From a virus (Duplodnaviria > Caudoviricetes): a DNA stretch of 29,198 bases. The notes below the pieces were generated by a model. That model had not been told where the DNA came from. It did not search any database and saw only the letters and a program-made list of their open reading frames with translations. The DNA is taken from the IMG/VR virus record IMGVR_UViG_3300024305_000002, positions 1 through 29,198 of that record. One strand, given 5' to 3'. Each line of letters opens with the position of its first letter. Positions within the stretch are counted from its first letter, which is position 1. Shown here piece after piece: positions 22,990 to 29,198 of the stretch. The translations under genes were made by a program, and so were the position numbers.

Positions 22990-23418
22990 CTAGTTAGCGC
23001 CTTTCTCTGATACGATATCTACCTCTTCAATAACTGAATATGCACTCATTCCAATTACAAATATTTCTTGTTCTTGAACATTTCCAAAGATATCGAATTG
23101 CCCTGGAGCAACTGGAGTGACTTCTTTTAGAATATTGAATACTTCACCAGTCTTCTTATCAGTTTCTTTAACATTGAATAATGTTGTGGATGTTGGAGCA
23201 GTTGGTTCTACTTTAGATTTAACTTGAGAAATCATAGTGATTTGTGTTCGATCTGCAGATGGTGTGAATGTAAGACGAATATCAATAACACGTTTCTTTG
23301 TTGGATCTGTATTGATATCGTTAATATTGGCCACAATTTTTTCTAGCTCATAATCAGCTAACTTCATGATTTGATTGCGACCAGCTTCTAGAATGCTTTT
23401 CTTTTTTTGTGCTGTCAT
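22990..23418 (-). CDS. Conserved phage protein ('replication terminator protein'-like annotation); start probably ATG 23418
   Basis: NINDINTDPTKKR...VKSK...PGQ. SD AGAAAGGA before ATG 23418. Confidence 0.7.
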   Translation of the reverse strand: MTAQKKKSILEAGRNQIMKLADYELEKIVANINDINTDPTKKRVIDIRLTFTPSADRTQITMISQVKSKVEPTAPTSTTLFNVKETDKKTGEVFNILKEVTPVAPGQFDIFGNVQEQEIFVIGMSAYSVIEEVDIVSEKGAN

Positions 23419-23482: not shown

Positions 23483-23779
23483 CTAAGTAACAAACATCGA
23501 CAATTGAGTATCAGGTAGTAATTCTGGATTACTCATTCTTACAAGGCTAGCAATCGTACTAATCAGCATTTCATAGGTATTTACTTTTGAATGTGTGCCT
23601 AATTGATGTAGTGCTGAGTGATCTATTCTAAACTCCCCATTGTCGGCTATCTTGATTGCAATAAATTGCTTTCTTCCATATAAAGCAGTTACACACTCTT
23701 TCCCAAATAGTGTTCCTCGATGGAATCTTAACTTAGGAAACTCATTGTTTAACTTTTGATATAACTCTTGTAAATCCAT
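23483..23779 (-). CDS. Hypothetical protein
   Basis: 98 aa, SD GAGGGG, TAATG coupling to the recombinase gene. Confidence 0.7.
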   Translation of the reverse strand: MDLQELYQKLNNEFPKLRFHRGTLFGKECVTALYGRKQFIAIKIADNGEFRIDHSALHQLGTHSKVNTYEMLISTIASLVRMSNPELLPDTQLSMFVT

Positions 23780-24597
23780 TACTTTCCCCTCATGTTTTCT
23801 AGTTTTTTACGTTTGTTTTCTTTCGATGTCTGTAGATAAATTGCGGTTGTTTTAATATCCAAATGTCTTAGAATATCTTTGAGATCTGCAAGACTTCCAC
23901 CATTTTCAATCCAATTTATTGCGAATAGATGTCTAACATTATGTGGATATACGATTGACTTATTTACTCGTGCTCTTCCAGCAATCTTCTTTAATCGATA
24001 TCGAATTTGACGATCATTTAAATCGAATATAGGACCAGTCTTGATACGTTTATCTTTGGCATAATTAACCAACTTTCGTTTCAATTGTTGAGTGAGTATG
24101 ATGTCACCCATCTTTCCTTTGTTGTTGACCTCAATGTAGAATGATTTGAGATTATCAACAGTGAAGAATGTTAACTCACTGATGCGTATTCCTGTGGTCA
24201 CTAGGACTTCTAATATGAGGTAGATGTCTTCATACCCCATAGCTTTCGCAAAACGTTGTAAACGTGCAAAATCTTTATTAGACAAGACTGTTTCAAGACT
24301 ACTCTTCATTTGTGTCTTAAACTTCTTTACTACGAGTTTTTCAAGCTTTAACCATCTAAGGTACTTATTCACTGAAATAACGATTTGATTCAATGAAGAT
24401 GATTTATAGCCTTCTGCAGCGATCATTTCTTTAAATGAAATGACATCTTCTTTAGTGATTGGATTATTGTGCTTAACTGATTCGATAAACATTTCAATAT
24501 TGCGTTTGTATGCATGGACTGTATTTTTAGACTTTTCATCATTTCTTAATTCGTCGACGAAAACGGATAACTCATCCTTTAACTGTGTTCGATTCAT
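23779..24597 (-). CDS. Tyrosine recombinase, Xer-like (core-binding and catalytic domains only)
   Basis: TGIRISE (R), NKGK (K), PHNVRH (HxxR), LRH (H), TTAIY (Y). Confidence 0.93.
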   Translation of the reverse strand: MNRTQLKDELSVFVDELRNDEKSKNTVHAYKRNIEMFIESVKHNNPITKEDVISFKEMIAAEGYKSSSLNQIVISVNKYLRWLKLEKLVVKKFKTQMKSSLETVLSNKDFARLQRFAKAMGYEDIYLILEVLVTTGIRISELTFFTVDNLKSFYIEVNNKGKMGDIILTQQLKRKLVNYAKDKRIKTGPIFDLNDRQIRYRLKKIAGRARVNKSIVYPHNVRHLFAINWIENGGSLADLKDILRHLDIKTTAIYLQTSKENKRKKLENMRGK

Positions 24598-24608
24598 TTT
24601 TATTTATC

Positions 24609-25184
24609 TTATTGATCAGTCTTTAATATGACTTGACCAATTACTTTCCCAATAACGTTTTTTGTAACAAAGATATCGTATCGTTGTAGAAACTCACCTT
24701 CCATGTAATAGCAAGCGCCACAAACATCTAATACAATAGCTTGATATTCTTTGTTGTTTAATTGAATCTTAAATTCATCATATAATTCATGGCTTTGGTA
24801 ACCCTCGTATATACCACGTTCTAAACGTGTCATATTAGCTGTTGCTACAACCACTTTCCCATCGAATGTATACATACCATCGTCATTAACTTCAAAGTCA
24901 TAGATCCTTAAGCCACTAGCAGTTGTTATACCGCTTGAACCATCTCCAAGATGATAGTTCGTAAAGTAAACATCCACTTTTCTATATTCTTCAAGATACA
25001 TTTGATTAATCTCTTCACCAGAATCAGTCTTTGGTTCCTCATACACTGGTTTAATCAATGTTGAATATTCTTCTCTTCGAATACTTAAATCTTTTGTATA
25101 CCAGGAGTAATGGAGAATTAAAAGAGATACAAGTAGAATAATTGATACATACTTAACTTCTTTTTTAAGTCTTCTCTTTTTCAT
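24609..25184 (-). CDS. Membrane-anchored 3D-domain-like (MltA/RlpA-type barrel) cell-wall protein
   Basis: Basic N-terminus and one TM helix; FTNY, TTASG, VLDVCGA, YDIFV. SD AAGGAGGT. Confidence 0.65.
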   Translation of the reverse strand: MKKRRLKKEVKYVSIILLVSLLILHYSWYTKDLSIRREEYSTLIKPVYEEPKTDSGEEINQMYLEEYRKVDVYFTNYHLGDGSSGITTASGLRIYDFEVNDDGMYTFDGKVVVATANMTRLERGIYEGYQSHELYDEFKIQLNNKEYQAIVLDVCGACYYMEGEFLQRYDIFVTKNVIGKVIGQVILKTDQ

Positions 25185-25344
25185 CTTGTACCTCCTTTAG
25201 ATTTCTTTCTAAATCATTGATATGAGAAAGTATTTTATTCACTTTCTCACCATTGGTAAGCTTGTTGTTTTTTACAGTTGATTTAATAAGTGCAATTGCG
25301 ACAACATGATCGACTAAACGTTTCATATCATTTACTAGATTCAT
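25165..25344 (-). CDS. Hypothetical protein, 59 aa (not in the ORF track)
   Basis: MNLVNDMKRLVDHVVAIALIKSTVKNNKLTNGEKVNKILSHINDLERNLKEVQDEKEKT*. ATGA overlap with the antirepressor stop; fills the gap to the next gene. Confidence 0.65.
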   Translation of the reverse strand: MNLVNDMKRLVDHVVAIALIKSTVKNNKLTNGEKVNKILSHINDLERNLKEVQDEKEKT

Positions 25345-26117
25345 AAATCAGTTCTCTCAATCATCGGTAGAATTCCCTTCTCTTTTAAGAAGTTATAAAG
25401 GAACATTCTTCCTTTTTGAGTCCACTGAGTATGCATTGAAACTTCCCTACGTCCATCTGTACGTGTAATCGGCACACTTATTGAAGATGTATAACCTTTG
25501 GAATGATATTCTGAATACAATAACCATTGGCCATTCATTAAGTATTGAATTCGATGATTATGAAGTATTACATTGAACTTCACTGCTGACATTCCATAAT
25601 CCTTTGCGATCTGCGTGATTGTCACTAATTCATTACCTTTTAGAATTAGATCTAAATAATCAACTTTTGGTTTAAGTTCACCAATTATCTGATGGCTTAT
25701 CTTAAGTTCCTGTTTTGCATCACTATATGCCTGGATAATCCCTAAGATATAATTTGGATCCTGCATAGTTTTTACAATTACATCTTCAGTAAGATACGCA
25801 CCTTGTTTTCGAATAGCTGGTAGTACATCACTGGTAACCCAACGTTTGAATTTCTTAGCAGCTGGTAATTGAGATTTAAGAATCAAACTATATAAACCGG
25901 ATTCATTAATGATTGGAGTTTTTTGTAATCTTCCGATGGAGTCCTGAATTGGGACTTCATCTTTGTCTTCTAAATCAACAAGATCATTTATCGCTTTTGT
26001 AGTTCTGGTATACCCAAGTACTTCAGCAACATCTTTACCAACAAACCAAGGTTGATTATCTTTGACTATTGTTCGAATCTCTTTTTGATCAAATTCAAAT
26101 ATTTGTAAATTATTCAT
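25341..26117 (-). CDS. Phage antirepressor (BRO-N plus KilA-C/ANT domains)
   Basis: PWFVGKDVAEVLGY, INESGLYSLI, FKRWVTSDVLPAIRK, ITQIAKDYG, WTQKGR. Confidence 0.95.
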   Translation of the reverse strand: MNNLQIFEFDQKEIRTIVKDNQPWFVGKDVAEVLGYTRTTKAINDLVDLEDKDEVPIQDSIGRLQKTPIINESGLYSLILKSQLPAAKKFKRWVTSDVLPAIRKQGAYLTEDVIVKTMQDPNYILGIIQAYSDAKQELKISHQIIGELKPKVDYLDLILKGNELVTITQIAKDYGMSAVKFNVILHNHRIQYLMNGQWLLYSEYHSKGYTSSISVPITRTDGRREVSMHTQWTQKGRMFLYNFLKEKGILPMIERTDL

Positions 26118-26128
26118 TTTAAGGATTA

Positions 26129-26145
26129 CCTTTCTTTGTTATGAT
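26129..26145 (+). promoter_or_regulatory. Extended -10 promoter (TG-T-TATGAT) overlapping the - strand SD of the antirepressor
   Basis: CCTTTCTTTGTTATGAT, identical to 27092-27108. Confidence 0.65.
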
Positions 26146-26171
26146 GTGAATAGTAACTAACTGGGGAGGGG

Positions 26172-26531
26172 GTGAAGAATTTGAATAATAAATTAGATAT
26201 TTTAGCTAAATCTCTTGAAAACGTTGGCAATTCTTTAAATAAATCTATAGAAGAAGCAAGTAAGAAAGCGTTAAGTTTTGATTTACCAACCCCTATTTGG
26301 GAAGATTTTCATTATAATTTACCTGAACTTGAGATTAATCCAATGATAGGATTAGCCGAGGAACAGTTAAGTGAAATTAAGAAGCTTAACTCTCAAATAG
26401 AAACTTTACAAAAAAGAATTCAAGATTTAGAAGAAAAAGCAGAACTAAGTAGAAAAAATCAATGGAAACACGATGTTTTAATAGCTTTTATTGGAGCCTT
26501 TTTCGGATTTATTTTCAGTTTATTTATTTAG
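26172..26531 (+). CDS. Counter-oriented accessory protein: coiled coil with C-terminal TM anchor
   Basis: SD GGGGAGG and GTG start, heptad region, ends in VLIAFIGAFFGFIFSLFI. Confidence 0.75.
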   Translation: MKNLNNKLDILAKSLENVGNSLNKSIEEASKKALSFDLPTPIWEDFHYNLPELEINPMIGLAEEQLSEIKKLNSQIETLQKRIQDLEEKAELSRKNQWKHDVLIAFIGAFFGFIFSLFI

Positions 26532-26588
26532 AATTTATTTTTCTTTGATTAATCTAGTACTATCAATAAAACAACAGGAGATATAAAT

Positions 26589-26891
26589 TTGAGACAAACA
26601 ATAATGAATAGACTTATTGAATTGCGTAATGATTTGATTCTTATATCTGATAATCACGATGATGTTTTAAATGTAATAATTAAGTACGAAATGATGATAA
26701 TGGGTACAAGACATAATACTGTAAGTTCACTTGAACTTTTATATAGATTAGGTATCAATATTGAAGAATTTAATGACCATATTCCAAGTATTTGTAAAGA
26801 TCTTGGAATGAAATATGAAGGTCTTATTTCTGTTAAAGATATCAATGTTAAGGATCCAAAAATTAGCATGTATTTAATTGAATTATTCTGA
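26589..26891 (+). CDS. Counter-oriented hypothetical protein, paralog A (100 aa)
   Basis: SD AGGAG and TTG start; aligns without gaps to 27136..27438. Confidence 0.8.
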   Translation: MRQTIMNRLIELRNDLILISDNHDDVLNVIIKYEMMIMGTRHNTVSSLELLYRLGINIEEFNDHIPSICKDLGMKYEGLISVKDINVKDPKISMYLIELF

Positions 26892-27086
26892 GAACGTTCC
26901 TGGATATTTTTGATTGAACATCGATTTTGCTTCATTAATTGAGATTTTTCCGCAAAGTATTAGATTTTTAATTCTTTCCATAAATTCATTTAATGTTTCA
27001 TTTACATCACTATTCTCAGTAGTGATGTTTTCTATGCCCTCATCTTTTAAATCTTTTAAAATATATTTCTCATCTAACATTTTCAT
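26883..27086 (-). CDS. Hypothetical early protein
   Basis: 67 aa, SD AGAAAGGA, on the lytic strand. Confidence 0.65.
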   Translation of the reverse strand: MKMLDEKYILKDLKDEGIENITTENSDVNETLNEFMERIKNLILCGKISINEAKSMFNQKYPGTFSE

Positions 27087-27091
27087 ATTTT

Positions 27092-27108
27092 CCTTTCTTT
27101 GTTATGAT
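27092..27108 (+). promoter_or_regulatory. Extended -10 promoter overlapping the - strand SD of 26883..27086
   Basis: CCTTTCTTTGTTATGAT, second copy. Confidence 0.65.
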
Positions 27109-27135
27109 TGTTTTTAGTAATGGTGAGGGATAACT

Positions 27136-27438
27136 ATGAGAGAAGTAATTAAGAACAAGCTTATTGAAGTTCGAAACGATTTTAATTCTTTAGATCAATC
27201 GAAACGAAACTCAATGTCTTTGTTCAAAAAGCACGACTTAGTGTTAACAGGTCCAATCAGAAGTAGAATTTATGCTGTGGAGCTTCTATACATGATTGAT
27301 ATTCCAGTAGAGAAATATATCGATATTATTCCTGGTATATGTGATGAGATTGGATTAAAGACGTTTGGTGTAATAAGCTCTAATGATTTATTCAAAGAAG
27401 ATGTAGAAATAAGAAACTTTGTAATCGAATTAATCTAG
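27136..27438 (+). CDS. Counter-oriented hypothetical protein, paralog B (100 aa)
   Basis: SD GAGGGA and ATG; paralogous to 26589..26891. Confidence 0.8.
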   Translation: MREVIKNKLIEVRNDFNSLDQSKRNSMSLFKKHDLVLTGPIRSRIYAVELLYMIDIPVEKYIDIIPGICDEIGLKTFGVISSNDLFKEDVEIRNFVIELI

Positions 27439-27442
27439 GATT

Positions 27443-27540
27443 GAATACATGCATCGAAGTTGCTACCGATCAGGCCAACAAAGGAAGGAATTTCAGGAGA
27501 ACACAAAACTTGATCAGTAACAACTTGCATACATGTATTC
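27443..27540 (-). ncRNA. Putative structured RNA, long hairpin 1
   Basis: 32-nt arms (27443-27474 and 27509-27540): 26 Watson-Crick pairs, 3 G.U on the - strand, a 2x2 internal loop and 1 mismatch. 34-nt pyrimidine-rich loop. Confidence 0.7.
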
Positions 27541-27552
27541 TTTTTTTTATAA

Positions 27553-27768
27553 TCACTTCCAAGCTCTTTTTCGTAATGGAGAATTCACAAATTCGATATA
27601 CTTTCTAACAACAACCTTCCATGGACTATTTCTCTTAGTCCCCTCTTTAAATGCGTGTGCATTCTTAGATCTGCAATAATTTAGAACATGTTCTTCACTG
27701 AATCCAAGTTTTGTAAGCTCTTGAACAGTCATAACTTCTTTTTCAATTTTTATTCCGAAGTATTCCAT
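27553..27768 (-). CDS. Small basic DNA-binding protein, excisionase-like
   Basis: 71 aa, MTVQELTKLGFS...WKV, SD AGGAG, first gene after cro. Confidence 0.55.
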   Translation of the reverse strand: MEYFGIKIEKEVMTVQELTKLGFSEEHVLNYCRSKNAHAFKEGTKRNSPWKVVVRKYIEFVNSPLRKRAWK

Positions 27769-27782
27769 TTGCTCTCCTATTC

Positions 27783-27890
27783 TGAATACATGTATCTAAA
27801 CTGGCATCCTACTAATCTAGTAATCGGGGGATGATTACTTTGGGTGGGGGAAGTAGATCAATAGAATGACAGTCTGCATACATGTATTCA
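27783..27890 (-). ncRNA. Putative structured RNA, long hairpin 2
   Basis: 37-nt arms (27783-27819 and 27854-27890): 30 Watson-Crick pairs, 4 G.U on the - strand, a 2x2 internal loop and 1 mismatch. 34-nt C-rich loop containing a sub-hairpin. Confidence 0.7.
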
Positions 27891-27893
27891 ATA

Positions 27894-27908
27894 TTCACAT
27901 ATCGTGAA
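27894..27908. promoter_or_regulatory. Distal repressor operator
   Basis: TTCAC-ATATC-GTGAA, symmetric half-sites, 14/15 identical to the operator at 28150. Confidence 0.8.
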
Positions 27909-27909
27909 G

Positions 27910-28116
27910 TTACTCTTCAAAAAAAATAGCTTGAACTGTAGTACCTAAAGTTTTTGCCAATAAGATCTTAACTTCATCGCGAGGAACTCTTGCTCCTTGC
28001 TCGTATGATTCAATAGCTCTTAGAGATAATCCTGTAATTTTAGCAAGTTGTATACGAGTAAGCCCAACATTTTCTCTAAGTTCCATTAATTTTCTTGAAA
28101 TGAATTTCTTTTCCAT
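27910..28116 (-). CDS. cro: Cro-like XRE HTH regulator (start probably ATG 28116)
   Basis: LTRIQLAKITGLSLRAIESYEQGARVP. Divergent from the repressor; SD AGAAAGGA. Confidence 0.9.
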   Translation of the reverse strand: MEKKFISRKLMELRENVGLTRIQLAKITGLSLRAIESYEQGARVPRDEVKILLAKTLGTTVQAIFFEE

Positions 28117-28140
28117 AACCAATTCCTTTCTACTAATTGC

Positions 28141-28169
28141 ATTCTATACTACACATATCGTGAAGTCAA
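28141..28169 (-). promoter_or_regulatory. Lytic promoter, with an operator (28150-28164) over its spacer
   Basis: -35 TTGACT (28169-28164), 17 bp spacer, -10 TAGAAT (28146-28141). Operator TACACATATCGTGAA. Confidence 0.85.
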
Positions 28170-28177
28170 TACCTAAA

Positions 28178-28192
28178 TACACATTTTGTGAA
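28178..28192. promoter_or_regulatory. Central operator
   Basis: TACAC-ATTTT-GTGAA. Confidence 0.8.
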
Positions 28193-28199
28193 TATTTGT

Positions 28200-28228
28200 T
28201 TGACATCTACACAATTCGTGTGTATTGT
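28200..28228 (+). promoter_or_regulatory. Repressor promoter, with an operator (28208-28222) in its spacer
   Basis: -35 TTGACA (28200-28205), 17 bp spacer, -10 TATTGT (28223-28228). Operator TACACAATTCGTGTG. Confidence 0.85.
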
Positions 28229-28253
28229 ATAGATAAAGAAGTGAGGAAATTTA

Positions 28254-28664
28254 ATGTCAATATTTAGTGATCGTCTCAAACAACTGAGAAAACAAAACGG
28301 TTTGACTCAAAAAATGTTAGGTCAGAATTTAAATTTAGGCGAAAGTACAATAAGTATGTATGAGCTTGGAGAAAGAGAACCAAATTTCGAAACACTTGAA
28401 TTATTAGCTGATTATTTTAATGTTGATATAGATTTTTTACTTGGGAAATCTGATAAAACAACTAAATTAGATATATATGGGAATCACAAAAATAATCTAG
28501 AGTATTTTTCAGATAAACCAGAATTGTTGGATTTATATCAACAGATTTATGAAAGTGAAACATTACAACTATTATTCGACTCAGCGAAAGATTTAACACC
28601 ACAAGATTTAGAAATGGTATTAACAATAATAAAAGGCATTAGAAAGGAAAGAGGCATAGATTAA
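28254..28664 (+). CDS. CI/ImmR-like XRE repressor with no S24 autoprotease domain
   Basis: RLKQLRK...LTQKMLG...STISMYELGEREP...LADYFNVDIDFLLG. Confidence 0.93.
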   Translation: MSIFSDRLKQLRKQNGLTQKMLGQNLNLGESTISMYELGEREPNFETLELLADYFNVDIDFLLGKSDKTTKLDIYGNHKNNLEYFSDKPELLDLYQQIYESETLQLLFDSAKDLTPQDLEMVLTIIKGIRKERGID

Positions 28665-28670
28665 TTAATT

Positions 28671-28979
28671 ATGGGGGAATTTGATATCGGGGACTTTAAT
28701 GAGTTTTGTAGTATTCATGGAATATGCATAAAAATTAAGAAGAATCTTGGTTCATCTATAAAAGGGTTTTGTTATTACGATGGGGAATCGTACCATGTGT
28801 TTCTAAATAATAGATTCAGTGGATCACAATTAAAAACAACCACAATACACGAGATTATACATATTATGAAAGATCACTTTAGTTGTGATCCTAAATATAT
28901 TTCTAAATGTGAAATCGAAGTTGAAAGAATTATTGAGGATTATCATTTGCAGTTTAATTTATTGGGTTATAACGCATGA
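28671..28979 (+). CDS. ImmA/IrrE-like zinc metalloprotease
   Basis: KGF...VFLN...HEIIH (HExxH) with a downstream Glu; directly after the repressor. Confidence 0.85.
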   Translation: MGEFDIGDFNEFCSIHGICIKIKKNLGSSIKGFCYYDGESYHVFLNNRFSGSQLKTTTIHEIIHIMKDHFSCDPKYISKCEIEVERIIEDYHLQFNLLGYNA

Positions 28980-28997
28980 TGCGTTCAAGGGGGAAAT

Positions 28998-29198
28998 ATG
29001 AAGTTAGGGTTGAGAACACCAAGCCTAAAGAAAAGCTTTAAAGCTAGAACCACAGGCAAGCTAAAAAGATCATTAAAGAAGGCAGTAAATCCACTATATG
29101 CTAAAAGTGGAATTGGATTTTTAAAGAATCCTTTAAAGTCTTCCAAAGCAAAGATTTATAAAAAAACAACTTTCAGTCTTTGGGACCTATTTAAATAA
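28998..29198 (+). CDS. Highly basic conserved lysogeny-module protein of unknown function
   Basis: RTPSLKKSFKARTTGK...KKTTFSLWDLFK; SD AAGGGGG. Confidence 0.8.
   Translation: MKLGLRTPSLKKSFKARTTGKLKRSLKKAVNPLYAKSGIGFLKNPLKSSKAKIYKKTTFSLWDLFK

Follow-up and report, generated by a model that had tools for sequence, protein, structure and literature searches.

Small RNAs (sRNAs) of low-GC Gram-positive bacteria act on Shine-Dalgarno sequences through unpaired C-rich motifs (PMC2790875, PMC9410917). The loops of RsaE/RoxS, IsrR and RNAIII present a conserved unpaired C-rich motif on variable helices. For AgvB and AsxR of EHEC, PMC4104026 describes a constant scaffold with a short variable part matched to a core-genome sRNA; these RNAs mimic a target and antagonise the host sRNA. 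RNase III cuts phage early mRNA in SP82 (PMC4838370) and T7 (PMC5389636), and these sites are described as long imperfect hairpins between early genes, just upstream of a ribosome-binding site (RBS), that act as processing or stability signals. With Racrs and rAcrIIA1, a phage reportedly copies a functional motif of a host non-coding RNA. The pseudo-ToxI RNA of phiTE is reportedly a phage mimic of an antitoxin RNA with a counter-defence role, and KSHV miR-K12-11 is said to be a viral orthologue of host miR-155 whose hairpin-borne seed copy taps the host target set.

Here, we analysed a window that is the whole 29.2-kb record (29,198 nt) of a temperate, siphovirus-like phage, in whose early region two long hairpins, A and B, flank a 71-aa gene. 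The open loop of A exactly copies an invariant C-rich motif of a candidate host sRNA, and a host regulator is thus likely produced by the phage in a version of its own. Similar to the described members of the RsaE/RoxS/IsrR class, the host RNA has a promoter and a terminator and is predicted to pair with G-rich Shine-Dalgarno sequences; in contrast, its motif and synteny are different, it has no Rfam match, and the phage copy sits inside an mRNA. Whereas AgvB and AsxR mimic the target, the better-folding strand of the present hairpins carries the seed of the sRNA itself rather than its complement, and the phage RNA would therefore reinforce the host sRNA. Additionally, AgvB and AsxR come from a different phylum than the present phage, and no shared sequence was detected. 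Racrs, rAcrIIA1 and pseudo-ToxI mimic CRISPR or antitoxin RNAs and are reported to act on proteins, while the RNA copied here lies beside neither a Cas nor a toxin gene and resembles a regulator that pairs with mRNA. For the RNase III sites of SP82 and T7, a host-derived regulatory loop is to our knowledge not part of their description; A and B resemble them in form and position, and their cleavage is a prediction. The viral microRNA orthologues depend on eukaryotic machinery and offer an analogy only.

Phage sponges of host sRNAs and CRISPR-RNA mimics have already been described, whereas repeated copying of a seed from a chromosomal regulatory sRNA was not found in our searches. The open-access literature searched, with the opening part of the review PMC12197685, gave no account of this host RNA, nor of any phage that copies the seed of a chromosomal sRNA; on the motif string and on structured RNA of Erysipelotrichaceae, the searches returned nothing relevant.

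Two hairpins in the early region of a temperate phage

On the minus strand, the order is a predicted lytic promoter, cro, hairpin A, the 71-aa gene, hairpin B and a Bro-N/KilAC antirepressor gene. On the plus strand, short genes are interleaved with the minus-strand early genes, and cI, an ImmA-like protease gene and a 66-aa gene lie to the right. The features of the hairpin region are as follows.

27136..27438 (+): 100-aa orphan gene in counter orientation, G-rich around its start; seed pairing predicted at -13.3 kcal/mol
27443..27540 (-): hairpin B, 98 nt, a diverged duplicate on the scaffold of A, downstream of the 71-aa gene
27541..27548 (+): U8 tract that follows B, read from the sequence
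27553..27768 (-): 71-aa gene between the hairpins, encoding a probable helix-turn-helix (HTH) DNA-binding (xis-like) protein
27784..27889 (-): hairpin A, 106 nt, with basal scaffold, 2x2 loop, upper stem and 34-nt loop, between cro and the 71-aa gene
27897..27912 (strand unassigned): operator-like sequence of the immunity region, a copy at the end of cro, just upstream of A
27910..28122 (-): cro-like HTH gene, the first in the lytic transcript
28141..28169 (-): predicted lytic (early) promoter, a consensus match only, from which both hairpins would be transcribed

A related prophage in genome G001 aligns with 22,583 of the 29,198 window bases (77%) at ~75% identity. The RNA pattern of G001 is common to nine genomes, G001 included, seven of which are labelled Erysipelotrichaceae; these nine are the ones examined out of 13 matches, the others being two Streptomyces, an actinomycete and an Elusimicrobia record. 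Because of the related prophage and the sharing of this RNA mostly with Erysipelotrichaceae genomes, the host of the window phage is likely a member of this family.

The 71-aa protein had been called xis-like in the initial annotation. Pfam and PHROG searches gave no match for it, while its language-model features resemble clusters of phage HTH DNA-binding proteins, so the label is plausible and remains unproven. For the 100-aa orphan, 23 close homologues were retrieved, but neither a family nor a fold of use. It and another counter-oriented 100-aa orphan look paralogous (27136-27438 and 26589-26891; 72% DNA identity over 58 nt at their starts). A cassette is repeated at 26115-26180 and 27078-27135, in which an extended -10 box overlaps, on the opposite strand, the RBS of a lytic gene and precedes a G-rich RBS, and different small orphan genes behind it are swapped among related phages. 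Terminator-like hairpins are also present on the plus strand at 25935-25961 and 27004-27028, inside minus-strand coding regions and oriented for counter-directed transcripts. Moreover, the early lytic operon contains a gene for a 272-aa XerD-like tyrosine recombinase (23779-24597), as does the G001 prophage.

On the minus strand, both hairpins start with GAAUACAUGUAU-GC-A and close with AU(A/G)CAUGUAUUC, and 12 pairs are followed by a 2x2 loop, formed by G.G and C.A in A and by G.G and C.C in B. The upper stems comprise 22 (A) and 18 (B) positions and carry 34-nt loops. This geometry is as the initial annotation gave it, and its count of G.U pairs on the minus strand at seven of the nine non-Watson-Crick positions outside the 2x2 loops was reproduced. 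Folding of the minus strand gave -45.4 kcal/mol for A (z -10.97) and -39.7 kcal/mol for B (z -8.06), with 0/200 shuffles equally stable in either case, while the plus strands were ~11 kcal/mol worse. A and B are the two longest inverted repeats in 24000-29198. With the U8 tract on its far side, B may double as a terminator of the counter-oriented 100-aa gene on the plus strand.

An Rfam 15 covariance-model scan, which included SprX, skipping-rope, C4 and RsaE, gave no window match at the gathering threshold, and the best match by E-value reached 23.5 bits against a threshold of 150; thus, neither hairpin belongs to a known Rfam family, in line with the earlier statement that the family was not recognised. 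A put-like antitermination element, which had been proposed, is not favoured. A put-type RNA consists of two abutting short hairpins close to the promoter, whereas A and B are ~240 nt apart with a gene between them and begin ~250 nt past the predicted promoter. C4/CI-type antisense RNAs have extended complementary sites in the antirepressor operon of the same phage; such a role was rejected, as exact complements of the inner parts reach no more than 8-12 nt in the window and lie scattered, and the antirepressor start pairs at only -2.7 kcal/mol. A MITE- or REP-like repeat was also rejected, because just two copies, both in the prophage, occur within 2.0 Mb of G001.

To follow the hairpins in relatives, we used pattern scans. 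These located A in 7/7 related phages (the window, G426, L025, L030, G427, G428 and the G001 prophage) and B in six of the seven; G428 has no B, and B is inverted in one of the six (G001). The window is identical to L053 across 4,754 bases. On inspection, 1/2, 6/9, 41/46, 15/15 and 8/12 of the pattern-scan matches were discarded as low-complexity or unrelated. Protein-anchored locus searches added no further phage, and GenBank phages held nothing matching the hairpin region or the late-promoter hairpin described below, and matched the G-rich start cassette at chance level only. Both hairpins are a real RNA element, conserved in seven related temperate phages of Erysipelotrichaceae.

Judged from their proteins, cI and cro fall into five types, each with its own operator-like copy just upstream of A. 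This copy matches at 13-16 of 16 positions in 7/7 phages (a figure without chance control) and varies with the repressor type in all seven, while A is retained. Thus, A is kept across exchange of the immunity module.

The RNA-level, strand-specific structure claimed for the window holds throughout the relatives: in 11/11 distinct hairpins, the C-rich strand gives the more stable fold, the gain being 3.6-14 kcal/mol, and each hairpin has 3-5 G.U pairs and at most one A.C mismatch. The constant basal scaffold is likewise borne out, its 12 base pairs being nearly invariant among the phages. Covariation, which had been named as a test, is scarce. Only 2/27 pairs of A and 2/31 of B change on both sides, with several further one-sided changes to G.U, since the basal scaffold is almost invariant. 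Two other parts of the initial description have to be revised. The equal length of the 34-nt loops is a coincidence, as whole hairpins of relatives measure 78-107 nt and their loops are shorter; and the upper stems, said to be of different sequence, are instead diverged homologues. Selection on RNA structure in the lytic transcript, as proposed, fails for one homologue, the G001 prophage, where B is inverted exactly between its arms and faces a counter-oriented gene, while the flanks keep their orientation. In the inverted copy of B (L004:3188-3265), a short non-coding stretch takes the place of the 71-aa gene. Contigs of four small-share runs over this region in relatives contained no joint of a B inversion, although contigs cannot show its absence.

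A host motif in the loop of hairpin A

Every A loop has UUCCCCCACC or a one-base variant of it, as do the B loops of G427 and G001. For hairpin B, the motif or a near copy is found in these two relatives (inverted in one); it has drifted in the window, and the seed is lost in 4/6 copies. A search of G001 for the loop motif returned five sites, one of which is an intergenic chromosomal unit between genes for an MFS transporter and a Nudix hydrolase. The corresponding features are listed here.

27841..27854 (-): seed block of A, 14 nt, equal to the main loop of the host RNA; its core UUCCCCCACCCA lies at 27841-27852, and in the predicted ensemble the block is fully unpaired
27821..27832 (-): second block of A, 12 nt, with the same sequence as the G001-lineage host RNA has in its second C-rich mini-hairpin
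27475..27508 (-): B loop, which is rich in pyrimidines (UCUCCU, UUCCUUCCUUU) and has drifted away from the seed
G001:C1:86803-86930 (L193:1501-1628): candidate host sRNA unit

The A loop and the chromosomal unit share 14 + 12 nt of identity in two blocks that occur in the same order within 40 nt. The two-block score of 26 exceeds the best score of 23 among 1000 dinucleotide shuffles (0/1000 as good), and each block is unique in the 2.0 Mb searched of the 2.008 Mb of G001. Among 14 host copies compared, this form of the second block is confined to the G001 lineage, which suggests that the A loop was captured from that lineage. For the window B loop, the chain score against the G001 unit is 19, inside the shuffle range, and no host RNA for this loop was found in four genomes with two exact patterns or in 61 relatives at 3 mismatches. 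The hairpins had been described as carrying a variable or exchangeable payload; the A loop is instead the most informative conserved part, a copy of a host motif, and B alone has drifted. Judging from these sequence matches, "variable payload" should be replaced by "copied host seed".

The host unit starts from a promoter match (TTGACA-17-TAAGAT) and ends in an intrinsic terminator; it has a mini-hairpin on the 5' side and a long stem that bears two C-rich loops, and its z score is -6.3. In the G001 lineage, the adjacent region L193:1460-1500 shows an inverted repeat, ACAAAT-N9-ATTTGT, across the promoter spacer, a possible regulator site. The unit is syntenic in 9/61 relatives by the exact pattern. 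A covariance model finds it in 23/151 family genomes; the seed is present in 19 of 22 inspected matches (26 in total), and the other inspected matches, without the seed, are terminators or a tRNA. The 12-mer UUCCCCCACCCA is present in 95/401 family genomes, compared with 3 matches of the reversed control. In non-coding occurrences, it lies in an open loop closed by at least 7 pairs in 56/58 cases, compared with 11/38 coding ones; these are the 96 distinct occurrences folded out of 119, duplicates and loci that lacked the exact seed or lay too close to an end having been excluded, and the related genomes are not independent. The 44 distinct 5' flanks of UUCCCCCACCCA average 37% identity, so that the stems diverge and the loop stays constant. 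A column-wise covariation analysis of the host RNA (MAFFT/RNAalifold) yielded 0 pairs because the stems are too diverged to align, and the alignment-free loop test was used instead.

A two-motif scan of GTDB gave 27 matches, of which 16 are labelled Erysipelotrichaceae or Erysipelotrichales, four have uninformative names, and seven belong to genera that we take to be members of Erysipelotrichaceae or Erysipelotrichales. The distribution is patchy (7/101 genomes of the order), and the carriers include culturable gut species; among cultured members of the family, Longicatena caecimuris, Dielma fastidiosa and Copranaerobaculum intestinale have the host RNA. Several genomes carry two sibling host RNAs. 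The layouts comprise either a 5' mini-hairpin with a separate terminator or a basal stem with a U-tract, and a second C-rich motif occurs. The neighbours of the host RNA are MFS transporter, Nudix hydrolase, radical-SAM and HAD-like genes, with no toxin or Cas gene adjacent; some copies adjoin genes that, from their N-terminal sequences, are presumably rubrerythrin- or desulfoferrodoxin-like. At threshold, Rfam gave 0 matches for the host RNA in G001 and in nine further loci. Collectively, the unit is a predicted small RNA and a candidate family conserved in Erysipelotrichaceae, without an Rfam model, and we infer that it is transcribed and acts by base pairing.

The same motif is displayed by other phage hairpins. 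In two prophages of G078, the seed sits in a different hairpin, located between a gene for a RinA/ArpU-like activator, which it directly follows, and the downstream terminase genes. A second copy of the seed in G428, an exact one, is mounted on a third scaffold with its own terminator, at an equivalent late-promoter motif. A scan for the late-promoter motif plus seed returned five virus records, namely G428, two that match the G078 prophages and two more. Behind the motif GTGTTATTATG, such seed hairpins lie at L247 ~1500, L257 ~2000, G428 (16056, lytic orientation), L362 and L363. Since the same seed occurs in these unrelated late-promoter hairpins, the common unit is the loop rather than the GAAUACAUGUAU scaffold, and its presence in two unrelated late-promoter hairpins of other phages indicates that the motif has been captured repeatedly.

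Predicted pairing partners of the seed

The four window start regions with the best seed pairings all belong to counter-oriented genes, namely the 100-aa orphan gene listed above and the following three.

26172..26531 (+): 119-aa gene in counter orientation, G-rich around its start; seed pairing predicted at -18.7, the best of the window
28671..28979 (+): ImmA-like metalloprotease gene whose first codons are G-rich; seed pairing predicted at -14.9
28998..29198 (+): 66-aa gene on the lysogeny side, with G5 in its ribosome-binding site; seed pairing predicted at -17.9

Pairing at or below -13 kcal/mol is predicted for 4/6 counter-oriented compared with 0/43 lytic genes of the window. In the same test, the values are 5/9 and 1/42 for G426, 3/7 and 1/26 for G427, and 2/7 and 4/40 for the G001 prophage. 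No such bias exists in G428 (1/7 and 3/52), G078a (0/4 and 2/44) or G078b (1/5 and 3/52). The bias is thus present in four of the seven phages, with start codons taken from a simple script; these four share start-region cassettes and are not independent. Anti-SD strength is equal between counter-oriented and lytic genes, and on 36 counter-oriented start regions the real seed performs better than 298/300 shuffled seeds. For the B loop, the predicted partners are ordinary ribosome-binding sites (AGGAG/AAGGA), and no clear target stands out. A pairing of loop B with the phage 150-aa gene at 22990 (-28.1 kcal/mol) was rejected, as this gene was not found in G426, which has the identical loop, yet is present in G427, which has another loop. 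Counter-oriented phage proteins gave 0/14 PADLOC matches.

On the host side, nrdD is the top prediction in G001, and as a conserved target it was rejected, since the pairing holds in only 3/18 close orthologues; no conserved host target was found. The predicted targets of G001 are richer in low-GC genes (34% of 110 versus 13% of 1786), an enrichment that is only suggestive, and include Schlafen, Gp49-like, HNH, DpdF-like and Panacea proteins. An enrichment of defence genes was not seen, as PADLOC matches among the 50 top predictions (11/50) do not differ from those among controls (7/50) and are mostly to generic domains. Taken from these pairing models, the likely targets are the counter-oriented accessory genes of the phage itself and host or foreign genes with G-rich start regions.

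Possible roles of the hairpin RNAs

The reading that we favour, at a probability of just over one half (about 0.52), is that A is a phage-made seed mimic of the host C-rich sRNA, which would be induced, cut by RNase III, pair with G-rich ribosome-binding sites and block translation, and that B is a drifted duplicate. Upon induction, the lytic promoter would transcribe the hairpins within the early transcript, from which RNase III would cut a stable hairpin RNA. With the host seed on display, this RNA would keep ribosomes from binding at G-rich start regions, thereby adding to the effect of the host RNA during lytic growth; B, as a duplicate on the same scaffold, would be free to drift. Release of a phage sRNA from the early transcript is a reasonable model. 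The stems, with 30-36 positions and small internal loops, have the size of RNase III substrates (about two helical turns or more), and RNase III is encoded, over the cut-off, in 3/3 family genomes tested. A wider version is tentative and stands well below even odds. It supposes that the Erysipelotrichaceae sRNA silences foreign messages with G-rich ribosome-binding sites, such as those of prophage accessory and defence genes, and that phages captured its seed at least three times, place it on hairpin scaffolds of their own in early or late transcripts, overproduce it on induction against defence and lysogeny genes, and retarget duplicates such as B to other ribosome-binding sites.

It is possible, though rather doubtful, that the single-stranded C-rich motif serves the host RNA and its siblings to bind a protein, in an antitoxin- or sponge-like manner, and that the phage hairpins titrate or satisfy this protein in lytic growth, as RNA anti-CRISPRs do with Cas proteins. 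An invariant 12-13-nt loop on freely changing stems would suit a ligand defined by shape plus motif, as would the pairs of sibling RNAs that genomes often have and the display of one and the same loop on three unrelated scaffolds in phages. The lack of a conserved host mRNA target in our searches and of a self-target bias in phages with a late-promoter copy points in the same direction. However, toxin and Cas genes are absent beside the host RNA, the phage loops tolerate changes (UUCCCCCCACCC, UUCCCCCACCUU, UUCCCCCUACC) that preserve G-pairing, and at phage start regions the pairing of the real seed exceeds that of shuffled ones. A role in cis only, in which the hairpins adjust the early operon as RNase III sites or as structures akin to antiterminators and the loop is incidental or inherited from an old captured sRNA gene, would leave unexplained the 26-nt two-block identity with the host lineage RNA. 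We consider it unlikely, even though long stems with small internal loops directly before an RBS are classic phage early RNase III substrates, as in SP82 (PMC4838370) and T7 (PMC5389636). The invariance of the basal 12 pairs and the loss of the seed in 4/6 B copies agree with such a role, whereas the seed is kept in all A copies while the upper stems change and recurs in unrelated late-promoter hairpins.

On its plus strand, the A loop is exactly complementary to the host seed, and a G-rich strand made from counter-oriented promoters in the lysogen could thus neutralise the host RNA as an anti-sRNA sponge, like AgvB against GcvB. Prophage anti-sRNAs with a constant scaffold and a variable seed are described (PMC4104026), B with its U8 tract ends the counter-oriented 100-aa gene, and a plus-strand extended -10 match is located at 27080-27108. 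Nevertheless, a sponge is quite unlikely, because the fold is better on the C-rich strand in 11/11 hairpins, G.U pairs become A.C mismatches on the other strand, and the G-rich motif is largely paired in the plus-strand fold of A. Moreover, the late-promoter copies place the C-rich strand directly behind the promoter motif. Finally, the palindromic ATACATGTAT arms could be recombination sites at which the XerD-like recombinase flips the inner segment and chooses the transcript that receives the C-rich strand. The exact inversion of B between its arms in G001, with unchanged flanks, and the 272-aa tyrosine recombinase gene in the early operon would fit such a DNA switch, which we regard as highly improbable: there is one inversion in 13 hairpin copies from seven phages and 0/7 for A, the arms have only 11-13 perfect pairs, and the many G.U positions favour RNA over double-stranded DNA symmetry. 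Template switching in quasi-palindromes also yields inversions of this kind without an enzyme.

If the wider version given above is true, the phage hairpins would be a bacterial counterpart of the viral microRNA orthologues. Repeated capture by phages marks the host RNA as a control point of phage-host conflict, with a role that is directly testable. Collectively, the analysis uncovers a conserved candidate sRNA family of Erysipelotrichaceae, one without an Rfam model.
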